The translations under genes and the position numbers were made by a program. A DNA stretch of 14,150 nt from a virus, in the UHGV virus genome UHGV-0126890, one strand, 5' to 3'. Positions 2,085 through 13,238 of the stretch are shown in pieces. Positions within the stretch are counted from its first letter, which is position 1; every line of letters begins with the position of its first letter. The notes beneath the pieces were generated by a model. It saw nothing but the letters and a program-made list of their open reading frames with translations, was not told the origin of the DNA and did no database searches.

Positions 2085-2581
2085 CAGTGATGACGCTCAA
2101 TCTCGTCGAAAAACAGCCAGCAGCTATGCGCCGGATAATTGGTAAGCATCTTGCCGTCCCTCGCTGGCAGGATACATGTGATTATTATAATCAGATGATG
2201 GAGCGCGAACGGCTAACAGTTTGCTTTCATGCGCAGTTAAAACAACGTCACGCAACGATGCGTTTTGAAGAAATGAACGACGTCGAACGTGAACGACTGG
2301 TATGTGCAATTGATGAATTGCGTGGGGCATTCTCAAAACGCCGTCAGGTTGGCGCAAGTGAGTATGCATATATTAGTTTTTTAACAGTCAGTCAGCGTCG
2401 CACTTTATTTATGCACGCACGACTGACAGAAAAAGAATTTAACCAGCCATACTGGCGAATTAATGAAGAATCATGTTACTGGCGTGATGCTTTATTCCGT
2501 GCATTACGTGAATTATTCAGTCTGTTTGAGTATGCACCGACAATTCTGACGTCGGTAAAACCAGAGCAATATCTGCATTAA
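2081..2581 (+). CDS. B: Replication protein B-like (P2 gpB, helicase-loader-like)
   Basis: 166 aa from the ATG at 2081, which has GGAGG 8 nt upstream (2068-2072); the ATG at 2075 has too short a spacer. Length matches P2 B as recalled. Translationally coupled to the upstream ORF. Confidence 0.7.
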   Translation: MTVMTLNLVEKQPAAMRRIIGKHLAVPRWQDTCDYYNQMMERERLTVCFHAQLKQRHATMRFEEMNDVERERLVCAIDELRGAFSKRRQVGASEYAYISFLTVSQRRTLFMHARLTEKEFNQPYWRINEESCYWRDALFRALRELFSLFEYAPTILTSVKPEQYLH

Positions 2582-2644
2582 GTAATTAACCAGAGTTTTT
2601 AACGCACTTAATTGTGCGGGGCTTCTTTTTGCCTGGAGAAAGTC

Positions 2645-2869
2645 ATGCATACAGTTTCTGAAAATCAGTGCGGTATATACGCATTACTGCTGCAACAGGC
2701 CAGAACCGAAGCACAGGCCGACGCTGCGACGCGCTTTTCTTCTCATCTTGACGCCATGATTCGCCACATCACAAAGGCGGAGTTATCCCGCGTGGAGATA
2801 GTCGAGCTGCTCAGTCAGGAGTCGGAAAAATTTCACAATATCGGATTGTCTCGCGGGGAGGTGCTTTGA
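2645..2869 (+). CDS. Small hypothetical early protein (position of P2 orf80)
   Basis: ATG at 2645 preceded by GGAGAAAG; the ORF-track start at 2612 is a TTG. 74 aa. Its stop TGA (2867-2869) overlaps the next ATG (2869-2871). Confidence 0.5.
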
Positions 2870-3171
2870 TGTCCTGTTCTCGTTCAGTTGTATTACTGAA
2901 TAACGCCTTAAAAATCGCCGTTATGGAAAATGGCGATTTGTCTCTTATTCAACTTGGTCTTGATAAAGAAAAGCGCGACATAACTGAATCTGTTATCGCG
3001 ATTTATCAGAGCGAATTAAACCTCCTGTCTGATGTGGTCAATTTACTTGTTAAACGCGCTGTATTTCACAAGCAAATTTCCTCAGTGGATGAACTGACAA
3101 AATTAACGACAGAACTCGCCAGCTATTGCGCTGATGAATTTAAGAAACTGAACGACAAAAGGAACTGGTAA
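2869..3171 (+). CDS. Small hypothetical early protein (position of P2 orf81)
   Basis: ATG at 2869 with GGGGAGGTG upstream; 100 aa. Its stop TAA (3169-3171) overlaps the next ATG (3171-3173). Confidence 0.5.
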   Translation: MSCSRSVVLLNNALKIAVMENGDLSLIQLGLDKEKRDITESVIAIYQSELNLLSDVVNLLVKRAVFHKQISSVDELTKLTTELASYCADEFKKLNDKRNW

Positions 3172-3395
3172 TGCCGGACAACGTAGATTTCATTCAGGAA
3201 CAACAGGCTGAATTACTGGAGCGCCAGATTAACGCGGCAAGGGTAAAACATTGCGGTGCTTCTGCGCTGGTTTGCGAAGAGTGTGACGCGCCAATACCTG
3301 CTGCCCGTCGTGCGGCTTATCCGTCAGCCACGCGTTGTGTTTCCTGTCAGTCAGTCTTTGAAGCAAAAAACAAACATTACCGGAGAACGGCATGA
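3171..3395 (+). CDS. TraR/DksA-family C4 zinc-finger protein (position of P2 orf82)
   Basis: 74 aa with C-x2-C-x17-C-x2-C (CEECDAPIPAARRAAYPSATRCVSCQ), the spacing typical of DksA/TraR-type zinc fingers. ATGA overlap with the next gene at 3392-3395. Confidence 0.65.
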   Translation: MPDNVDFIQEQQAELLERQINAARVKHCGASALVCEECDAPIPAARRAAYPSATRCVSCQSVFEAKNKHYRRTA

Positions 3396-3667
3396 GTATT
3401 CGTATCGAAATTGGCGAACGTTATGTTGTTACCAGTGACAGCTTTCAGTTTATTCTCCACGAGAAAAAGAGAGCGGAAAGCGTTAAAAACGCCGGTCAGG
3501 AATGGCTGGCGGTGGTTGGTTATTACCCGAAATTAAGCCAGCTCGTTTCCGGCCTGATGCATCACGATATTCTGACCGGAAGCGCAAAATCTTTTGCCGA
3601 TTTAAACGCGCAGGTTGAGCAACTCAGCAGGCGTTGTTCAGAGGCTTTTGGCTCATATGGACGTTAA
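3392..3667 (+). CDS. Small hypothetical early protein (position of P2 orf83)
   Basis: ATG at 3392 preceded by GGAGAA; 91 aa; immediately upstream of and overlapping the A gene start. Confidence 0.5.
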   Translation: MSIRIEIGERYVVTSDSFQFILHEKKRAESVKNAGQEWLAVVGYYPKLSQLVSGLMHHDILTGSAKSFADLNAQVEQLSRRCSEAFGSYGR

Positions 3668-5936
3668 AGCCTCCGGGCGTTTTGTCCCTCCGTCAGCATT
3701 TGCCGCAGGCACCGGTAAGGCGTTTACCGGTGCTTATGCATGGAACGCGCCACGCGAGGCTGTCGGGCGCGAAAGACCCCTTACACGTGACGAGATGCGT
3801 CAGGTGCAAGGTGTTTTATCCACGATTAACCGCCTGCCTTACTTTTTGCGCTCGCTGTTTACTTCACGCTATGACTACATCCTGCACAATAAAAGCCCGG
3901 TGCACGGGTTTTATTTCCTCACATCCACTTTTCAGCGTCGTTTATGGCCGCGCATTGAGCGTGTGAATCAGCGCCATGAAATGAACACCGACGCGTCGTT
4001 GCTGTTTCTGGCAGAGCGTGACCACTATGCGCGCCTGCCGGGAATGAATGACAAGGAGCTGAAAAAGTTTGCCGCCCGTATCTCATCGCAGCTTTTCATG
4101 ATGTATGAGGAACTCAGCGATGCATGGGTGGATGCACATGGCGAAAAAGAATCGCTGTTTACGGATGAGGTGCAGGCTCACCTCTATGGTCATGTTGCTG
4201 GCGCTGCACGTGCTTTCAATATTTCCCCGCTTTACTGGAAAAAATACCGTAAAGGACAGATGACCACGAGGCAGGCATATTCTGCCATTGCCCGTCTGTT
4301 TAACGATGAGTGGTGGACTCATCAGCTCAAAGGCCAGCGTATGCGCTGGCATGAGGCGTTACTGATTGCTGTCGGGGAGGTCAATAAAGACCGTTCTCCT
4401 TATGCCAGTAAACATGCCATTCGTGATGTGCGTGCACGCCGCCAGGCAAATCTGGAATTTCTTAAATCGTGTGACCTCGAAAACAGGGAAACCGGCGAGC
4501 GCATCGACCTTATCAGTAAGGTGATGGGCAGTATTTCTAATCCTGAAATTCGCCGGATGGAGCTGATGAACACAATCGCCGGTATTGAGCGTTACGCCGC
4601 CGCAGAGGGTGATGTGGGGATGTTTATCACGCTGACCACGCCGTCAAAGTATCACCCGACACGTCAGGTCGGAAAAGGAGAAAGTAAAACCGTCCAGCTT
4701 AATCACGGCTGGAACGATGAGGCATTTAATCCAAAGGATGCGCAGCGTTATCTCTGCCGTATCTGGAGCCTGATGCGCACGGCATTCAAGGATAATGATT
4801 TACAGGTCTACGGTTTGCGAGTCGTCGAGCCACACCACGACGGAACGCCGCACTGGCATATGATGCTTTTTTGTAATCCACGCCAGCGTAACCAGATTAT
4901 TGAAATCATGCGTCGCTACGCGCTCAAAGAGGATAGCGACGAAAGAGGAGCTGCGCGAAACCGTTTTCAGGCAAAACACCTTAACCGGGGCGGTGCTGCG
5001 GGATATATCGCGAAATACATTTCAAAAAACATCGACGGCTATGCACTGGATGGTCAGCTCGATAACGATACCGGCAGGCCGCTGAAAGACACTGCCGCGG
5101 CTGTTACCGCATGGGCGTCAACGTGGCGCATTCCGCAATTTAAAACTGTTGGCCTGCCGACAATGGGGGCTTACCGTGAACTACGCAAATTACCTCGCGG
5201 CGTCAGCATTGCTGATGAGTTTGACGAACGTGTCGAGGCTGCACGCGCTGCCGCAGACAGTGGCGATTTTGCGCTGTATATCAGCGCGCAGGGTGGGGCA
5301 AATGTCCCGCGCGATTGTCAGACTGTCAGGGTCGCCCGTAGTCCGTCGGATGAAGTTAACGAGTACGAGGAAGAAGTCGAGAGAGTGGTCGGCATTTACG
5401 CGCCGCATCTCGGCGCGCGTCATATTCATATCACCAGAACGACGGACTGGCGCATTGTGCCGAAAGTTCCGGTCGTGGAGCCTTTGACTTTAAAAAGCGG
5501 CATCGCCGCGCCTCGGAGTCCTGTCAATAACTGTGGAACGCTCACCGGTGGTGATACTTCGTTACCGGCTCCCACACCTTCTGAGCACGCCGCAGCAGTG
5601 CTTAATCTGGTTGATGACGGTGTCATCGAATGGAGTGACCCGGAGGTCGTGAGGGCGCTCAGGGGTGCATTAAAACACGGACTGAGAAGACCAAACCGCC
5701 AGCAAAGAAACGGAAGCCCGTTAAAACCGCATGAAATAGCGCCATCGGCCAGACTGACCCGGTCGGAACGAATGCAAATTCCCCGTATCCGCGTTGACCT
5801 TGCTCAGAACGGTATCAGGCCGCAGCGATGGGAGCTTGAGGCGCTGGCGCGTGGCGCGACCGTAAATTATGACGGGAAAAAATTCGCTTATCCGGTCGCT
5901 GATGGATGGCCAGGGTTCACAACTGTAATAGATTGA
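3657..5936 (+). CDS. A: Rolling-circle replication initiator (P2 gpA-like HUH endonuclease)
   Basis: Long ORF; first ATG at 3657 gives 759 aa (the ORF-track start at 3615 is a TTG). HUH motif in GTPHWHMMLF. Paired-tyrosine motif YIAKYISKN typical of rolling-circle initiators. Strong resemblance to P2 A as recalled. Confidence 0.85.
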   Translation: MDVKASGRFVPPSAFAAGTGKAFTGAYAWNAPREAVGRERPLTRDEMRQVQGVLSTINRLPYFLRSLFTSRYDYILHNKSPVHGFYFLTSTFQRRLWPRIERVNQRHEMNTDASLLFLAERDHYARLPGMNDKELKKFAARISSQLFMMYEELSDAWVDAHGEKESLFTDEVQAHLYGHVAGAARAFNISPLYWKKYRKGQMTTRQAYSAIARLFNDEWWTHQLKGQRMRWHEALLIAVGEVNKDRSPYASKHAIRDVRARRQANLEFLKSCDLENRETGERIDLISKVMGSISNPEIRRMELMNTIAGIERYAAAEGDVGMFITLTTPSKYHPTRQVGKGESKTVQLNHGWNDEAFNPKDAQRYLCRIWSLMRTAFKDNDLQVYGLRVVEPHHDGTPHWHMMLFCNPRQRNQIIEIMRRYALKEDSDERGAARNRFQAKHLNRGGAAGYIAKYISKNIDGYALDGQLDNDTGRPLKDTAAAVTAWASTWRIPQFKTVGLPTMGAYRELRKLPRGVSIADEFDERVEAARAAADSGDFALYISAQGGANVPRDCQTVRVARSPSDEVNEYEEEVERVVGIYAPHLGARHIHITRTTDWRIVPKVPVVEPLTLKSGIAAPRSPVNNCGTLTGGDTSLPAPTPSEHAAAVLNLVDDGVIEWSDPEVVRALRGALKHGLRRPNRQQRNGSPLKPHEIAPSARLTRSERMQIPRIRVDLAQNGIRPQRWELEALARGATVNYDGKKFAYPVADGWPGFTTVID

Positions 5937-6042
5937 AATAGTGTGAATATCTAAGAGATAAAACTATATAAGGTGTGTATTAATACTGTGCTGGAGGAAA
6001 AGGTGAAAACCAGATGGCATGGCTACAATAATAAAACGATAA

Positions 6043-6071
6043 GCCTCATTTTTAATGAGGCCGTTTTTATT
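6043..6071. terminator. Hairpin terminator between the convergent A gene and the cargo operon, possibly bidirectional
   Basis: 8-bp stem GCCTCATT (6043-6050) / AATGAGGC (6054-6061) with a 3-nt loop, followed by CGTTTTTATT on the plus strand; the minus-strand side is followed by a moderately T-rich tract. Lies about 100 nt after the A stop and 30 nt after the stop of the 6102-6773 gene. Confidence 0.55.
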
Positions 6072-6101
6072 ACATCAAAAGAATTGAATTGTATTGTTAA
6101 C

Positions 6102-6773
6102 TTAAAGGGCAAACCTTTCTATGGTTCGATACACCTTGTCAAAAATTTGCTCTGAAAGTGAAATGGACCCATTTGTGTTAATTTCTAATGACTCATAACC
6201 GGTAACGTCCTTAACATTAAGTTTAACTTTATCAATTGTAAAATTTGCATTTTTGAAAATGTTTCTTATTTCCATAAGTGCGTCACTTGATGACTCAAGT
6301 TCCAGTATGCCGGATGTGTGTTTGCTAAACGTTAAGTCTTTTAATTTTGCCTTGTGCACTTGTATTTTTTCAAAGTGCGGGGTCAGGAAATAAATGAAGT
6401 CCTCAATTTTGATGTTGAGATTTGACACATTAAAATCAGAATGTGTTGATTTAATTATGTTTGATATGAAGTTCTTAATGCTTCTGGGAGGCGACTCAAT
6501 GATTAAGATGAAGTTTTTACCTTTTGTTGTGTAAAGCCAAAAGTTAAATTGAATATATTTTAGCTGTGTATATTGAGTCTCGTTTCCATATGGATCAACG
6601 ATTATCTCGTTGACCTCTACTTTCTCGATGTATCGAGATGATATTGCATTTTCTTCATATGAGTTGATACTAAATCCCCAGCCTTTATCACTATCAAAAG
6701 GAGTGTTAATGATAGACTGATATAAACTATCAAGTCCAGCAGGGAAGTTGGCAGTAAACCATTTTGTTTTCAT
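6102..6773 (-). CDS. Hypothetical protein, third gene of the AT-rich cargo operon; no family recognised
   Basis: 223-aa ORF in very AT-rich DNA, where long open frames are unlikely by chance. ATG at 6771-6773 with AAGGAG 6 nt upstream. Starts 11 nt after the stop of the upstream gene. No P-loop or other motif I can name. Confidence 0.75.
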   Translation of the reverse strand: MKTKWFTANFPAGLDSLYQSIINTPFDSDKGWGFSINSYEENAISSRYIEKVEVNEIIVDPYGNETQYTQLKYIQFNFWLYTTKGKNFILIIESPPRSIKNFISNIIKSTHSDFNVSNLNIKIEDFIYFLTPHFEKIQVHKAKLKDLTFSKHTSGILELESSSDALMEIRNIFKNANFTIDKVKLNVKDVTGYESLEINTNGSISLSEQIFDKVYRTIERFAL

Positions 6774-6784
6774 AACAACTCCTT

Positions 6785-7897
6785 TTATTTATCAGTAACA
6801 ACCTCAATTGTGTTGGAGGCGATAATACTGTTTGAAATTTCGCGAGCGGTTTTTTCAAGTGCTAATAATAGCAGTTTTTCCTTCTCTTTATCTACATTTT
6901 GACGATTTGCATATTCGTTTATATTTTTGTACTTATAAACACCGCGAACGATATACGAGAATAACTTGCAATTATCTGGGTCGACAAATTGAGCCTCGAA
7001 TTCATATTTGTCCGAGTCTTTATAAGTGTCAACAACAGAACTCCAAATGATTTTGGTAATATAAAATCCTTTTCCTAACAACTCCTTAAACTCGAGAGAG
7101 TCAAGAACGCTGCGCCCTTTTAGTGAAGCTTTGGAGATATGATATCCTGTGTCAATAATTGTATCGTCATCATCAGAATCATCTTCATTTTCGTTAGACT
7201 TATTTGACTCAAGAATTGGATGCGTAACGTATACATCCGATACGTCAATGCATTTGTAGTTAGGTATGCTTGAGATTAGTTGCTCAAAAAATTTGCTTCT
7301 TTCCGCTGGTGATTTAACAGTTTCGAGCGAAATCTCATCAAGACTGGCTGGATCCTCATTGTTGTCTTCTTTGATCTTCTCCACGAGGCGCTCGTTGAAT
7401 TCCCTTGCTTTAGCATTTTGAGGGAAACGGGTGATAAATTCACCGCTTTCATTCATTTCAACTTGTATTTTGGCTTCACGTGATGAGGATTGGCGAAACT
7501 CGCTCATTTTGAAATCTAGTTTCACATATTTTATTGATACTTCAAAACCATTCTCGGTGTAATTTATATTAGTTATATCGCCTTCTTTTTGAAGATCTTC
7601 ACAAATAGATTTAATAGTATTTTCCATACTATTTTTATCTATATTTGTATTAATAATGTTAATTGATACTTTTTCTCTCCGCCCAACAGAACCGAGTATG
7701 TTTGAAAGAAATTCAAAATCAGAATAGCCATGATAGTATCTGGAAAAATCCAAAGCCAATGTTTTTCGTTTAGTCTCTTTGGATATAATCATTCCTCTTT
7801 TAAAAAAGAGACTTTTCATATCTTCATGAGTGACTTTAGTTTGATTCAATGCGTCAAACATTGCCTTATCATTTACACTATATAATCCAATTTTCAT
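6785..7897 (-). CDS. Hypothetical protein, second gene of the AT-rich cargo operon; contains an acidic tract; no family recognised
   Basis: 370 aa from the first ATG (7895-7897), which overlaps the stop of the upstream gene in an ATGA arrangement; the ORF-track start at 7912 is a TTG. Acidic stretch NENEDDSDDDD. No Walker A motif. Confidence 0.75.
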   Translation of the reverse strand: MKIGLYSVNDKAMFDALNQTKVTHEDMKSLFFKRGMIISKETKRKTLALDFSRYYHGYSDFEFLSNILGSVGRREKVSINIINTNIDKNSMENTIKSICEDLQKEGDITNINYTENGFEVSIKYVKLDFKMSEFRQSSSREAKIQVEMNESGEFITRFPQNAKAREFNERLVEKIKEDNNEDPASLDEISLETVKSPAERSKFFEQLISSIPNYKCIDVSDVYVTHPILESNKSNENEDDSDDDDTIIDTGYHISKASLKGRSVLDSLEFKELLGKGFYITKIIWSSVVDTYKDSDKYEFEAQFVDPDNCKLFSYIVRGVYKYKNINEYANRQNVDKEKEKLLLLALEKTAREISNSIIASNTIEVVTDK

Positions 7898-8958
7898 GCC
7901 TGTCGCTCCCAACCAATCTCTACCGAACTAAAACGAGGCTTTGTAAATTCTACCTGTTGAAAATCAATAGCATCTATTATCGTTTTTTTATGTTCATCGA
8001 ACCCCCATTCTTGACAATAACTATCCTTCGCACGCATAAAAATACTGCGAACATCTTTATGTATGTTAGGGTTAACTATTCTAATTCTTATATTTTCATT
8101 GCCATCCAGTAATTGATATTTAGATAGTGTGTCCAGAATGTAAATAAACTCTAGCTCGTTTTTTCCTTCGCCATTGTAATAAATAATGTAACCATGTTTA
8201 AATGTGGTTTCCCATTGTGATGTTTCTTCATTGCAATGTCTGACGTCATTATGTTTTATAATAAGGAATGGGCCTGTCAATAATTCTACAGTTGCTGGAA
8301 GTTCTTCGGGCGAACCGCTTACTTTATGTAGTGAAAGGTCTGGGTAAAAGAATTGATATTTTTTACCGAGTGGAAACTCTCTTTTGTGGCTTAGTTGTGA
8401 TAAATCGCAGATTATTGACTGCAGGTAGTTTATAGTTCTTGGTTCAATAATGTGTATTTTTTGACCGACCCTTACCGGTATATTGTCAAGATTGATACCT
8501 CTTTTCTTCTTATCAGTTTCAGTATTGTGAGACTGATAGAATACATCATAAAAAGATTGGTCAAAGTCTCCGTCATGGTTGTATACAAAGAGCATGCCTC
8601 TGACTTCTGACGCACCACTTTTATAAGAATAACGCTCCTTCCATTCTTTACAACCTTGAGCACAGTCAATAGAATTAGCCAGCGATACTAAAGCATTGCG
8701 CATTTTAGTTGCTGTAATTGAGCCTTTAATATAGCTTTTTAAATCAGTATTTAAAAAAATGGTTCTATTCAAATAGGGATCTTTATAAGAAAATACAACA
8801 TCAGTTGGATGTGTTCCGGCTAGTGTTTTATGTTGATCTTTTTTCATGCATGGAAAGTTTTCATTGGTTGGACCAACGAGTTCCCACTTAAACCATTTGA
8901 ATAGGTCTGAAGATATTTTTTCTGCCATTGCTGAAATATTTTGAGTTTCACCTGACAT
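7894..8958 (-). CDS. Hypothetical protein, first gene of the AT-rich cargo operon; possible nuclease or nucleotidyltransferase-like motifs (speculative)
   Basis: 354-aa ORF. ATG at 8956-8958 with an AGGT-type Shine-Dalgarno about 7 nt upstream. No Walker A. HPTD followed 21 residues later by DLK is compatible with a PD-(D/E)xK pattern; KSGAS ... DGDFD is loosely compatible with a nucleotidyltransferase GS ... DxD pattern. Both are unverified pattern matches. Confidence 0.75.
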   Translation of the reverse strand: MSGETQNISAMAEKISSDLFKWFKWELVGPTNENFPCMKKDQHKTLAGTHPTDVVFSYKDPYLNRTIFLNTDLKSYIKGSITATKMRNALVSLANSIDCAQGCKEWKERYSYKSGASEVRGMLFVYNHDGDFDQSFYDVFYQSHNTETDKKKRGINLDNIPVRVGQKIHIIEPRTINYLQSIICDLSQLSHKREFPLGKKYQFFYPDLSLHKVSGSPEELPATVELLTGPFLIIKHNDVRHCNEETSQWETTFKHGYIIYYNGEGKNELEFIYILDTLSKYQLLDGNENIRIRIVNPNIHKDVRSIFMRAKDSYCQEWGFDEHKKTIIDAIDFQQVEFTKPRFSSVEIGWERQA

Positions 8959-9196
8959 GATAATTACCTATATATATTTTGTATAAATCCCTATGAGCCA
9001 TAACTCTTATGAACCACATGTAACAACGTGGGGCATATTATGGCTAATCGATCTGTACCATAATTTCATCATTCTTGCATCATCTTGAATGAATTCGCAT
9101 GCTTACGCCATATCCATATCAAAACATCAATGTCAACAATGGCGCGGATTCGGCTAAATCATGCAACTGCATTAAAATCGCCCCATGAAGCGGGCG

Positions 9197-9384: not shown

Positions 9385-10419
9385 TCAGTCGTTGTCAGTG
9401 TCCAGTGAGTAGTTTTTAAAGCGGATGACCTCCTGACCGAGCCAGCCGTTTATTTCCCGAATCCTGTCTTGTAGCGGGATAAGCTCATTGCGGACAAAGA
9501 CCTTTGCCACTTTCTCAATATCGCCCAGCGACCCGACGTTCTCCGGCTTGCCGCCCATCAACTGAAAGGGGATGCGGTGCGCATCCAGCAGGTCAGCGGC
9601 GCTGGCTTTTTTGATATTAAAAAAATCGTCCTTCGTTGCCACTTCACTGAGCGGAATAATTTTAATGCCGTCAGCTTTCCCCTGTGGGGCATAGAGAAAC
9701 AGGTTTTTAAAGTTGTTGCGGCCTTTCGACTTCACCATGTTTTCGCGGAGCATTTCGATATCGTTGCGATCCTGCACGGCATCGGTGACGTACATGATGT
9801 ATCCGGCATGTGCGCCGTTTTCGTAATACTTGCGGCGGAACAGCGTGGCCGACTCATTCAGCCAGGCAGAGTTAAGGGCGCTGAGATATTCCGGCAGACC
9901 GTACAGCTCCTGATTAATATCCGGCTCCAGCAGGTGAAACACGGAGCCGGGCGCGAAAGGTGTCGGCTCGTTGAAGGACGGCACCCACCAGTAAACATCC
10001 TCCTCCACGCCACGGCGGGTATATTTTGCCGGTGAGGTTTCCAGTCTGATGACCTTACCGGTGGTGCTGTATCGCTTTTCCAGAAACGCATTACCGAACA
10101 CCAGAAAATCCAGCACAAAGCGGCTGAAATCCTGCTGGGAAAGCCACGGATGCGGGATAAATGTCGACGCCAGAATATTGCGTTTGACGTAAATCGGCGA
10201 GCTGTGATGCACGGCAGCACGCAGGCTTTTTGCCAGACCGGTAAAGCTGACCGGTGGCTCATACCATCTGCCGTTACTGATGCACTCGACGTAATCCAGA
10301 ATGTCACGCCGGTCGAGTACCGGCACCGGCTCACCAAAGGTGAATGCCTCCATTTTCGGGGCGCTGGCGGTCATTTTTTTTGCCGCAGGTTGCGGTGTTT
10401 TCCCTTTTTTCTTGCTCAT
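9385..10419 (-). CDS. Q: Portal protein (P2 gpQ-like)
   Basis: 344 aa, the length of P2 Q, with N-terminus MSKKKGKTPQPAAK and overall resemblance to P2 Q as recalled. Its ATG (10417-10419) overlaps the stop of the upstream terminase gene by 1 nt, as in the P2 PQ operon. Confidence 0.9.
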   Translation of the reverse strand: MSKKKGKTPQPAAKKMTASAPKMEAFTFGEPVPVLDRRDILDYVECISNGRWYEPPVSFTGLAKSLRAAVHHSSPIYVKRNILASTFIPHPWLSQQDFSRFVLDFLVFGNAFLEKRYSTTGKVIRLETSPAKYTRRGVEEDVYWWVPSFNEPTPFAPGSVFHLLEPDINQELYGLPEYLSALNSAWLNESATLFRRKYYENGAHAGYIMYVTDAVQDRNDIEMLRENMVKSKGRNNFKNLFLYAPQGKADGIKIIPLSEVATKDDFFNIKKASAADLLDAHRIPFQLMGGKPENVGSLGDIEKVAKVFVRNELIPLQDRIREINGWLGQEVIRFKNYSLDTDND

Positions 10420-11360
10420 CAGTAAAACTCCAGAATGGTGGATGTCAGCGGGGTGCTGATACCGGCGGTGAGTGGCTCATTTAACAGGGCGTGCATGGTC
10501 GCCCAGGCGAGGTCGGCGTGGCTGGCTTCCTCGCTGCGGCTGGCCTCATAGGTGGCACTGCGTCCGCTGCTGGTCATGGTCTTGCGGATAGCCATAAACG
10601 AGCTGGTGATGTCGGTGGCGCTGACGTCATATTCCAGACAGCCACGGCGGATAACGTCTTTTGCCTTGAGCACCATTGCGGTTTTCATTTCCGGCGTGTA
10701 GCGGATATCGCGCGCGGCGGGATAGAACGAGCGCACGAGCTGGAACACGCCGACACCGAGGCCGGTGGCATCAATTCCGATGTATTCGACGTTGTATTTT
10801 TCGGTGAGTTTGCGGATGGATTCCGCCTGGGTGGCAAAGTCCATGCCTTTCCACTGGTGACGCTCAAGTATTCTGAATTTGCCACCGGCCACCACCGGCG
10901 GTGCCAGTACCACGCATCCGGCGCTGTCGCCACGGTGTGACGGGTCGTAACCAATCCATACCGGGCGGGAGCCGAACGGATTGGCGGCAAACGGCGCATA
11001 GTCTTCCCATTCTTCCAGCGTGTCGACCATGCAGCGTTGCAGCTCCTCGAACGGGAACACCGACGCCTTGTCGTCAACAAATTCACACATGAACAGGTTT
11101 TTAAAATCGTCGGCGCTGTTTTCACGTTTGAGCTGCTCAATGTCGAACAGTGTGCAGCCACCTTTCAGGGCGTCCTCAATGGTAACAATCTGCCGCCACT
11201 GGCCGTCCGCACAGAGAAGACCTCCGGCAAGGGCGTTATGACTGACGTCGATTTCCACGCGTTCGGCGGCGCTGGCGCGTCCCCGGTTGAACAGTTCACC
11301 CGACCAGAACGGGTAAGGTACTGCATACCCATAAACACCCCGGCGACAGCGGCGGCACAA
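10419..11360 (-). pseudogene. P: 5'-truncated terminase large subunit (P2 gpP-like), nuclease domain only
   Basis: Open frame of about 313 codons ending 1 nt into Q. Contains terminase nuclease-domain-like aspartate motifs (VWIGYDPSHRGDSAG, YIGIDATGLGVG) but no Walker A/B ATPase region. P2-family large terminases are about 590 aa. The frame runs open to 11384 with no ATG or RBS; the ORF-track start is a TTG. Upstream it abuts W instead of the divergent late promoter region and gene O. Confidence 0.7.
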
Positions 11361-11373
11361 CCGGGAGTCCTCT

Positions 11374-11721
11374 ATGACAGCGCGTTATCTCGGAATGAAT
11401 CGCAGTGATGGCCTGACTGTCACTGACCTTGAACATATCAGCCAGAGTATCGGCGATATCCTGCGCACACCGGTCGGCTCACGGGTGATGCGTCGTGATT
11501 ACGGCTCGTTGCTGGCGTCAATGATTGACCAGCCGCAGACCCCGGCGCTTGAGTTGCAGATTAAGGTCGCCTGTTACATGGCAGTGCTGAAATGGGAACC
11601 CCGCGTCACCCTGTCATCCGTCACCACTGAGCGCAGTTTTGACGGGCGAATGACGGTCACGTTAACCGGCCAGCACAACGACACCGGCCAGCCACTTTCG
11701 TTAACCATCCCTGTGAGTTGA
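11374..11721 (+). CDS. W: Baseplate wedge protein (P2 gpW-like, gp25-like)
   Basis: 115 aa, the length of P2 W; ATG at 11374 with GGGAG 6 nt upstream; followed 4 nt later by J, matching the P2 gene order W-J-I-H. Confidence 0.85.
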   Translation: MTARYLGMNRSDGLTVTDLEHISQSIGDILRTPVGSRVMRRDYGSLLASMIDQPQTPALELQIKVACYMAVLKWEPRVTLSSVTTERSFDGRMTVTLTGQHNDTGQPLSLTIPVS

Positions 11722-11725
11722 AATC

Positions 11726-12634
11726 ATGCCGATTATCGACCTGAACCAGCTACCCGCACCGGATGTGGTCGAGGAGCTGGACTTTGAAACCATTCTCGCC
11801 GAACGCAAGGCGACACTGATTTCCCTTTACCCGGAAGACCAGCAGGAGGCGGTCGCCCGTACCCTGACGCTGGAATCTGAGCCTCTCGTCAAGCTGCTGG
11901 AGGAAAATGCTTATCGTGAGCTTATCTGGCGTCAGCGTGTGAATGAGGCCGCACGGGCGGTGATGCTGGCCTGTGCTGCCGGTAATGACCTTGATGTGAT
12001 TGGTGCCAATTACAACACCACGCGCCTGACTATCACCCCGGCAGATGATTCGACCATCCCGCCGACACCGGCAGTGATGGAGTCTGACACCGATTATCGT
12101 CTGCGTATTCAGCAGGCGTTTGAGGGCTTAAGCGTCGCCGGGTCGGTGGGAGCCTATCAGTATCATGGTCGCAGTGCCGACGGGCGTGTCGCGGATATCT
12201 CTGTCACCAGTCCGTCTCCGGCCTGCGTCACCATCTCTGTGCTGTCACGTGAAAATAACGGTGTCGCATCCGAAGACCTGCTGGCGGTGGTGCGTAACGC
12301 CCTGAATGGCGAGGACGTCAGGCCGGTGGCCGACCGCGTGACCGTGCAGTCTGCCGCCATCGTTGAATACCAGATAAACGCCACGCTTTACCTTTACCCT
12401 GGTCCCGAAAGCGAACCCATCCGCGCTGCCGCCGTGAAAAAACTGGAAGCGTACATCACGGCACAGCACCGGCTGGGGCGTGACATCCGTCTGTCTGCCA
12501 TTTATGCCGCTTTGCATGTGGAAGGCGTGCAGCGTGTCGAACTGGCTGCACCGCTGGCCGACATCGTGCTCAACAATACGCAGGCGTCTTTCTGTACCGA
12601 ATACAGCGTCGTGACCGGAGGCTCGGATGAGTGA
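11726..12634 (+). CDS. J: Baseplate assembly protein J (P2 gpJ-like)
   Basis: 302 aa, the length of P2 J; positioned between W and I; overlaps the I start by 8 nt. Confidence 0.85.
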   Translation: MPIIDLNQLPAPDVVEELDFETILAERKATLISLYPEDQQEAVARTLTLESEPLVKLLEENAYRELIWRQRVNEAARAVMLACAAGNDLDVIGANYNTTRLTITPADDSTIPPTPAVMESDTDYRLRIQQAFEGLSVAGSVGAYQYHGRSADGRVADISVTSPSPACVTISVLSRENNGVASEDLLAVVRNALNGEDVRPVADRVTVQSAAIVEYQINATLYLYPGPESEPIRAAAVKKLEAYITAQHRLGRDIRLSAIYAALHVEGVQRVELAAPLADIVLNNTQASFCTEYSVVTGGSDE

Positions 12635-13238
12635 TTCGCGACTGCTGCCGACCGGCTCATCACCGCTTGAGGTCGCCGCCGCAAAAGCCTGTGCGGAAAT
12701 TGAAAAAACGCCGGTCTGTATTCGTGAGCTGTGGAACCCGAATACCTGTCCGGCAAATCTGCTGCCGTGGCTGGCGTGGGCGTTTTCTGTTGACCGCTGG
12801 GATGATAAGTGGCCGGAAGCGACAAAACGCGCTGTTATCCGCGATGCGTATTTCATTCACTGCCATAAGGGCACTATCGGTGCGATCCGGCGTGTGGTGG
12901 AGCCGCTCGGCTATCTGATTGAGGTGAGGGAGTGGTGGCAGCTCAACGAGGAGCCGGGGACGTTCTGTATCGTTGTTGGTGTGCTTGAGCAGGGTATTAC
13001 CGAAGAAATGTATCAGGAGCTGGAGCGTCTTGTTGCTGATGCAAAACCGGCGAGCCGCCATCTGACGGGACTGGCTATCAGTTTAAGTACAACCGGCAAC
13101 ATTTTTGCCGGTGCGGGATGCTATCACGGTGACGCCCTGACGGTTTATCCCTACACCCCGGAGGCCATTATTGTCGGAGGGGATTATTTCCCGGCCTCGG
13201 CCATTCATTTAATTGATAACCTGAGAGTAAACGCATGA
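12627..13238 (+). CDS. I: Baseplate/tail protein I (P2 gpI-like)
   Basis: 203-aa ORF starting MSDSRLLPTGSSPLEVAAAKA; resembles P2 I as recalled. Its stop (13236-13238) overlaps the next ATG (13235-13237). Confidence 0.8.
   Translation: MSDSRLLPTGSSPLEVAAAKACAEIEKTPVCIRELWNPNTCPANLLPWLAWAFSVDRWDDKWPEATKRAVIRDAYFIHCHKGTIGAIRRVVEPLGYLIEVREWWQLNEEPGTFCIVVGVLEQGITEEMYQELERLVADAKPASRHLTGLAISLSTTGNIFAGAGCYHGDALTVYPYTPEAIIVGGDYFPASAIHLIDNLRVNA

Follow-up and report, generated by a model that had tools for sequence, protein, structure and literature searches.

What does a tightly packed run of three genes do for a P2-like prophage when it sits in the variable hotspot between gpA and cos? The question is raised by virus genome UHGV-0126890, a stretch of 14,150 nt (hereafter the window, to whose full length all coordinates refer), in which three genes, all on the minus strand, occupy 8958–6102. 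An earlier note on this DNA assigned them to no known family and proposed a candidate novel anti-phage system. Using a combination of profile searches, structural models and comparison of homologous loci, we find that the three genes are almost certainly a divergent member of Rst_3HP, and our comparisons give a first suggestion of how 3HP may work, namely by pairing a DNA-cutting enzyme with a ring-shaped DNA clamp. The system itself is already known; the link from 3HP to GAPS4 and RdgC appears to be new, and we offer it as a lead rather than a result.

The identity of the locus is carried by near full-length matches to three PADLOC profiles (Hp1, PDLC03004, E = 2e-63; Hp2, PDLC03005, E = 3.6e-37; Hp3, PDLC03006, E = 6e-8), found in three adjacent co-directional genes in that order, the arrangement by which Rst_3HP is recognised. 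These profiles describe Rst_3HP, the "hp + hp + hp" system of Rousset et al. (2022, Cell Host Microbe, PMC9122126). Taken from the gpA–gpQ hotspot of a P2-like prophage in E. coli E1114 and carried on plasmid pFR109, that three-gene system "with no clear predicted domain" protects against phage P1; the hotspot systems of that study were expressed from native promoters (PMC9122126). The name Rst_3HP is that of DefenseFinder, which locates the system mostly in prophages (PMC9090908). The tested pFR109 proteins and those of the window share the gene order, similar sizes (333/359/227 aa against 354/370/223 aa) and the same gpA–gpQ locus in a P2-like prophage, whereas the window copy differs in residing in a prophage without head and lysis genes. 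By BLASTP, identity to the pFR109 proteins is 36% for Hp1 (E = 5e-68), 31% for Hp2 (E = 2e-39) and 19% for Hp3 (E = 1e-10), values low enough for us to consider the window copy a distinct subtype. The window triad itself, as RefSeq WP_024160514, WP_001398851 and WP_032238998, is listed twice in Table S5A of the same study, in P2-hotspot arrangements (PMC9122126). Together with the PADLOC matches, these accessions turn the supposed novel system into a catalogued, divergent member of a tested family. Both the absence of a known family and the novelty claimed earlier must therefore be given up, since all three proteins match PADLOC Hp1, Hp2 and Hp3, both PADLOC and DefenseFinder list the system, and experiments on a homologue date from 2022; the earlier note had itself named homology of all three proteins to a characterised system as the observation that would count against it, and as to identity such homology is what we find. 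What survives is that the genes belong to a family with experimentally shown anti-phage activity, shown for the E1114 copy only. Scans of the three proteins against Pfam and NCBIfam returned sub-threshold noise only, and PHROGs gave strong matches, all to families of unknown function.

The three-gene unit recurs, gene by gene homologous, in six independent loci, and the arrangement is therefore not a matter of chance. A P2-like phage of Klebsiella bears a homologous triad at the same hotspot, and others occur in a temperate Vibrio phage, where the depositors' own annotation reads Rst_3HP__Hp1/2/3, in a filamentous phage of Pseudomonas, on a Citrobacter IncFIB plasmid and on a plasmid of Vibrio cidicii. 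Gene order is kept across the homologous loci, with members of about 333–366, 359–415 and 215–229 aa, and profiles of the window family match each gene of each triad (Hp1, E ≤ 9e-54; Hp2, E ≤ 5e-22; Hp3, E ≤ 2.5e-13, computed for a nominal database of 1000), at identities to the window of 28–44%, 25–34% and 18–26%, respectively. A search of 5426 complete E. coli genomes found 10 in which the island that holds the genes is at least 80% present, nine of the copies being nearly identical and one at 76% identity; the cos-side edge of the island matches more than 2000 E. coli genomes, and the Hp3 protein is found on more than 1000 Salmonella contigs. The Pseudomonas phage 99-2 (OR621024; 3992–6889 of locus L002) carries the full triad next to a repressor and an excisionase in a filamentous (Tubulavirales) genome of 13.5 kb, unusually large cargo for a small phage, and a second filamentous Pseudomonas phage, 54-4, also encodes an Hp1 homologue.

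A clue to mechanism comes from the first gene, Hp1 (8958–7894, minus strand; 354 aa, 41.2 kDa), the predicted nuclease effector, which comprises an N-terminal PD-(D/E)XK domain (about residues 1–135) and a C-terminal domain. Its AlphaFold2 model (pLDDT 91.2, pTM 0.89) has the restriction-endonuclease-like alpha/beta core, with D53 at the start of beta strand 49–60 and D72 and K74 on the next strand, 65–76, which places D...(D/E)xK on adjacent strands as in PD-(D/E)XK enzymes. The codons of this catalytic core (H50-P-T-D53 ... N70-T-D72-L-K74) lie at 8737–8811 and that of the conserved E4 at 8947–8949, both on the minus strand; among 104 Hp1 homologues, variation is absent at H50, P51, D53, N70, D72, L73 and K74 and almost absent at E4. 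Database relatives of Hp1, one of them 100% identical, carry a precomputed PF26115 match, and our local Pfam scan of Hp1 returned no PF26115 at E ≤ 1 despite that match on the identical protein. UniRef names the relatives "GAPS4 PD-(D/E)XK nuclease domain-containing protein", the PGAP name is now similar, and in RefSeq the label on near-identical copies varies between genomes, being "hypothetical protein" in some and "PD-(D/E)XK nuclease domain-containing protein" in others. A profile search of PDB sequences with the Hp1 alignment found nothing.

Profile comparison ties this nuclease to GAPS4a, for which we used the sequences in the supplement of Mahata et al. (bioRxiv 10.1101/2025.09.07.674715). 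With hhalign, the profiles of Hp1 and GAPS4a (the latter from 7 sequences) align over 214 columns from residue 1 (97.5% probability, E = 5e-12), and a single GAPS4a sequence suffices for 93.7%. The HPxD of Hp1 aligns with the HGxD of GAPS4a, whose Asp is essential for GAPS4 defence (bioRxiv 10.1101/2025.09.07.674715). Hp1 is about 40 aa longer than GAPS4a, and tblastn with Hp1 did not reach GAPS4a. These alignments establish the homology of Hp1 and GAPS4a at the level of sequence profiles, and by its motif and modelled fold Hp1 is a nuclease of the GAPS4a family, with cleavage activity as a prediction. We also observed that C37 (8848–8850), C99 (8662–8664) and H43 of Hp1 are invariant in the 104 homologues and that the GAPS4a alignment has invariant C36 and C97 at places equivalent to C37 and C99; the alignments suggest a disulfide or metal site shared by Hp1 and GAPS4a, a feature mentioned by neither paper.

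The second gene, Hp2 (7897–6785, minus strand; 370 aa from its ATG, 42.7 kDa, pI 5.1), is the predicted DNA clamp or sensor subunit; the open reading frame (ORF) listing extends its start upstream to a TTG at 7912. Scanning reference genomes with the GAPS4a alignment yielded 10 GAPS4 loci, in each of which the nuclease gene is succeeded by a gene of 367–385 aa whose start overlaps it, and a GAPS4b profile was built from nine sequences taken from genome loci. The Hp2 profile matches it at 83% (E = 8.6e-6) over 228 columns from residue 1, the match runs collinearly to both C-termini under a relaxed threshold, and three negative-control profile pairings gave E values of 0.14–0.42. Judged by these alignments, Hp2 is probably the counterpart of GAPS4b, a homology to which we assign moderate support. 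A tblastn search of plasmids with GAPS4b returned near-identical copies only. The model of Hp2 (pLDDT 83.5) shows an N-terminal helical domain, two alpha/beta domains, an acidic linker and, at the C-terminus, a long helix, and its fold appears RdgC-like. RdgC forms a ring-shaped dimer, for which a hole of about 30 Å has been proposed as the site that takes up double-stranded DNA (PMC1885664); from this likeness we infer a ring and a clamp function for Hp2. Compared with RdgC (PDB 2owl; PMC1885664, PMC2965237), a member of the wider RdgC/RexA/IML3/CHL4 fold, Hp2 shows 10% identity and no sequence-level relationship, and differs in its extra N-terminal helical domain, its acidic disordered linker and its nuclease partner. 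That linker (residues 230–247, ESNKSNENEDDSDDDDTI; 7157–7210, minus strand; pLDDT <50) is strongly acidic (NENEDDSDDDD) and has similar stretches in the Hp2 of pFR109 and of V. cidicii. One may speculate that it is a DNA-mimicking auto-inhibitory loop. In the collected GAPS4b sequences, acidic stretches appear weaker than in Hp2. When each sequence in the alignments of Hp2 and Hp3 was scanned against Pfam, the matches amounted to scattered noise, without any family recurring, and a profile search of PDB sequences with the Hp2 alignment found nothing.

GAPS4, consisting of GAPS4a and GAPS4b, was described by Mahata et al. in GMT islands (bioRxiv 10.1101/2023.03.28.534373), and later work found it to be a 2:2 complex, with a GAPS4b ring predicted by AlphaFold3, and a non-selective DNase that is triggered by DNA breaks or nalidixic acid with an abortive outcome (bioRxiv 10.1101/2025.09.07.674715). 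A DNase that responds to DNA breaks fits the view of Hp2 as an RdgC-like clamp. Two homing endonucleases, bas24_0090 and T7 gp3.8, blunt GAPS4. Like GAPS4, 3HP has its nuclease gene first, an overlapping junction to the second gene and subunits of similar size; unlike 3HP, GAPS4 has two genes (or a single fused one), with no conserved third gene in 11 loci, whereas Hp3 is kept in all seven 3HP triads. It is Hp3 that sets 3HP apart from two-gene GAPS4. Other PD-(D/E)XK nucleases of defence systems, SduA of Shedu and HamA of Hachiman, respond to DNA ends or to damaged DNA and are without sequence homology to 3HP; Shedu consists of one protein and Hachiman has a helicase as partner, whereas 3HP contains neither an ATPase nor a helicase. 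In the searchable literature the mechanism of Rst_3HP is still undescribed, and a 2024 survey keeps it among the defence systems without an assignable domain (bioRxiv 10.1101/2024.10.26.620412); we found there no paper that names both 3HP and GAPS4 or links either to RdgC, and 3HP, Rousset and RdgC are all absent from the text of the GAPS4 paper (bioRxiv 10.1101/2025.09.07.674715).

These comparisons lead us to posit a route from DNA end to nuclease. Hp2 would dimerise into an RdgC-like ring or clamp around double-stranded DNA, with Hp1 docked on it in the manner of GAPS4a on GAPS4b. Free ends or breaks in DNA that arise from infection would load or open the clamp and so switch on Hp1, which would then degrade DNA without discriminating self from non-self, such that the phage is stopped and the infected cell is lost. 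Hp3 would act as a non-enzymatic third subunit that probably gates or narrows activation, or meets phage factors. Taken as a package, the Rst_3HP identity and an abortive, DNA-end-sensing clamp–nuclease mechanism seem to us somewhat better than an even bet, and the clamp–nuclease mechanism in full we put at roughly even odds. More tentatively, and with rather less confidence than we would need to prefer it, we raise the idea that a single old superfamily, made up of PD-(D/E)XK nucleases with RdgC-like toroidal clamps that read free DNA ends, has branched into Rst_3HP and GAPS4; Hp3 would then be a lineage-specific, fast-evolving gate narrowing or retuning the trigger.

Several observations weigh against this mechanism. 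Hp1 and its 104 homologues carry HPxD...DxK and not the GAPS4a motif HGxD-SxK. The homology of Hp2 and GAPS4b depends on an hhalign probability of 83%, and the Hp2 profile gave no significant match to a single GAPS4b sequence. As for the fold of Hp2, a Foldseek search of the PDB returned no match at E ≤ 1e-3 and did not place RdgC among the best 50, its only hits being CHL4 and CENP-N at E of about 2e-3 and a TM score of about 0.2; Pfam RdgC had no match at E ≤ 1 in 58 members of the Hp2 family; and the protein as a whole is acidic (pI 5.1), an atypical property in a DNA clamp. The subunits have only 36%, 31% and 19% identity to the tested copy, P1 protection is known for the E1114 copy, and the prophage that hosts the window triad is defective. 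The tested 3HP, moreover, protected against one of eight phages, P1, only, whereas GAPS4 is broad; the trigger may accordingly differ between the two systems, and this is our main reason to doubt that it is identical.

The place where the two systems part is the third gene, Hp3 (6773–6102, minus strand; 223 aa, 25.9 kDa), which encodes the third subunit and has a homologous third gene in the six other triads (E ≤ 2.5e-13). Its profile finds 727 cluster representatives among 1.84 billion proteins, 485 of them at E ≤ 1e-10, and the best 150 of the 727 are all stand-alone proteins of about 183–240 aa that match along their whole length and show no fusion. Whether shallow or deep, Hp3 profiles showed no relationship to GAPS4a, GAPS4b, Hp1 or Hp2, from which it follows that Hp3 is not a split-off piece of another subunit, and Hp3 had no match in Pfam or among PDB sequences, including with a deeper 115-sequence alignment. 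No catalytic motif is apparent in the Hp3 alignment, and the only residues conserved to at least 90% are G33, P61, G63, P96 and S161; the near lack of conserved polar residues suggests a binding rather than a catalytic role.

These features of Hp3 would also suit a system resembling a toxin–antitoxin pair, abortive and triggered by protein, in which the nuclease Hp1 (with Hp2) is toxic but latent, Hp3 is its neutraliser or sensor, and a specific phage protein, not a DNA end, releases the nuclease. Besides having almost no conserved polar residues, Hp3 is the fastest-evolving of the three subunits (18–26% identity against 28–44% for Hp1), as would befit a part that contacts phage factors, and the narrow range of the tested 3HP, P1 only, set beside the broad, DNA-break-sensing GAPS4, speaks in the same direction. 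Toxicity of Hp1 and its neutralisation by Hp3 are purely hypothetical here, however; GAPS4, the closest characterised relative, gave no escape phages and responds to DNA breaks, and the modelled RdgC-like fold of Hp2 would point to DNA as the ligand. We consider this explanation unlikely.

A further alternative keeps DNA as the ligand and spares the cell: Hp1 and Hp2, possibly with Hp3, would thread onto the ends of linear DNA entering from the phage, degrade that DNA alone and leave the circular chromosome intact, in a restriction-like, non-abortive defence resembling an end-dependent exonuclease barrier. A ring clamp of the kind that the RdgC fold implies would load most easily on free ends, present in injected phage DNA but not in the intact chromosome, and the PD-(D/E)XK fold is common to restriction enzymes and end-dependent nucleases such as Shedu. 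Yet GAPS4 also degrades host DNA and viability drops at high multiplicity of infection, while 3HP gives no sign of self/non-self marking and its island is without a methyltransferase; we judge such sparing of the host quite improbable. Least likely by far, in our estimate, is that the triad is not primarily a defence and serves the prophage itself, for instance by modulating RecA or recombination so that lysogeny is stabilised, or in DNA processing, with the P1 phenotype of the homologue as a side effect: RdgC is a negative regulator of RecA, RexA, of the same fold, biases the lambda lysis–lysogeny switch, and the triad adjoins repressor or excisionase genes in Pseudomonas phage 99-2 and the Vibrio phage, but resistance to phage has been measured for the homologue under its native promoter, plasmids with no phage nearby carry the triad too, the locus is a hotspot enriched in defence cargo, and Rst_3HP is found mostly in prophages per DefenseFinder, like other phage-borne defences. 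We retain the abortive clamp–nuclease mechanism as our working model.

The layout of the locus is consistent with a single cargo unit. Rereading the sequence confirmed the three ORFs in position, strand and size, as well as the ATGA overlap of the first two genes at 7897–7894, through which the start of Hp2 is translationally coupled to the stop of Hp1, and the 11-nt spacer between the second and third genes. The AAGGAG proposed as the Shine-Dalgarno sequence of Hp3 is present (6779–6784, minus strand; 5 nt before the ATG), but it lies in that spacer, after the TAA of gene 2 (6787–6785), and not within gene 2 as first described. A terminator scan detected a hairpin just 3' of Hp3 (6042–6062, minus strand), with a 9-bp stem followed by a T-rich tail; it is found on both strands, hence bidirectional, and also stands downstream of gpA. 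Upstream of Hp1 runs a non-coding leader (8959–9170, minus strand) with no ORF of at least 60 aa, the presumed native promoter region, in which the promoter scan found nothing convincing and only a weak sigma-70-like match at 8985–8957. The genes belong to a low-GC cargo island (5950–9150), a variable hotspot insert between gpA and cos/gpQ, with a GC content of 34.3% against 53.6% in gpA and 55.5% in the late genes. The flanks are those claimed earlier, a P2-type replication endonuclease A (3657–5936, plus strand) and the portal gene Q (9385–10419, minus strand), and the genes do form, as described, an operon-like cargo unit at the P2 hotspot between A and cos. The island contains no methyltransferase, and a regex scan for a long hydrophobic run or transmembrane-like segment was negative in all three proteins.

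Other known defences were considered for the locus and set aside. Neither a P-loop (G....GK[ST] or [AG]....GK[ST]) nor a Y.DD motif was found by regex in any of the three proteins, as had been stated, and Old, PARIS AriA, Septu, Gabija ATPases and retrons, for which no Walker A or YxDD motif and no PADLOC or Pfam match was found, were rejected; their exclusion in the earlier note is upheld by both motif and profile scans. No Rfam family was detected within the window, which makes a retron-type or other RNA component unlikely.

The window is 100% identical to a region of E. coli AST46 (NZ_AP043639.1), where the prophage adjoins pflA. Its terminase large-subunit gene (10419–11374 of the window; 11968–12926 of the AST46 locus L020) lacks the N-terminal half and is a RefSeq pseudogene, and at about 11374 it runs straight into the baseplate gene W, from which it follows that the capsid, scaffold, small terminase, lysis and tail-completion genes of an intact relative have been deleted. 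With head, lysis and tail-completion genes gone, the defence cargo survives in a defective prophage that is unable to make heads. Outside the window, the AST46 prophage carries an acyltransferase-family gene and a helix-turn-helix gene fragment between its tail-fibre and sheath genes (16853–18276 of L020); this site is the second P2 hotspot, with cargo possibly related to serotype conversion. The experimentally studied pair GAPS4-RiKo (2085–4158 of locus L007) likewise lies in a P2-like prophage, with the tail-fibre genes on one side and the sheath gene FI on the other, and P2-like phages would thus carry two related nuclease–clamp systems in two hotspots.

With the identity of the locus settled in favour of a known family, the value that remains is mechanistic: a concrete and cheaply testable model in which a GAPS4a-type nuclease is coupled to a GAPS4b- and RdgC-like clamp. 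If the link holds, two separately named systems would merge into one family, and their two-gene and three-gene forms would constitute a natural experiment on how an accessory subunit bears on trigger specificity.

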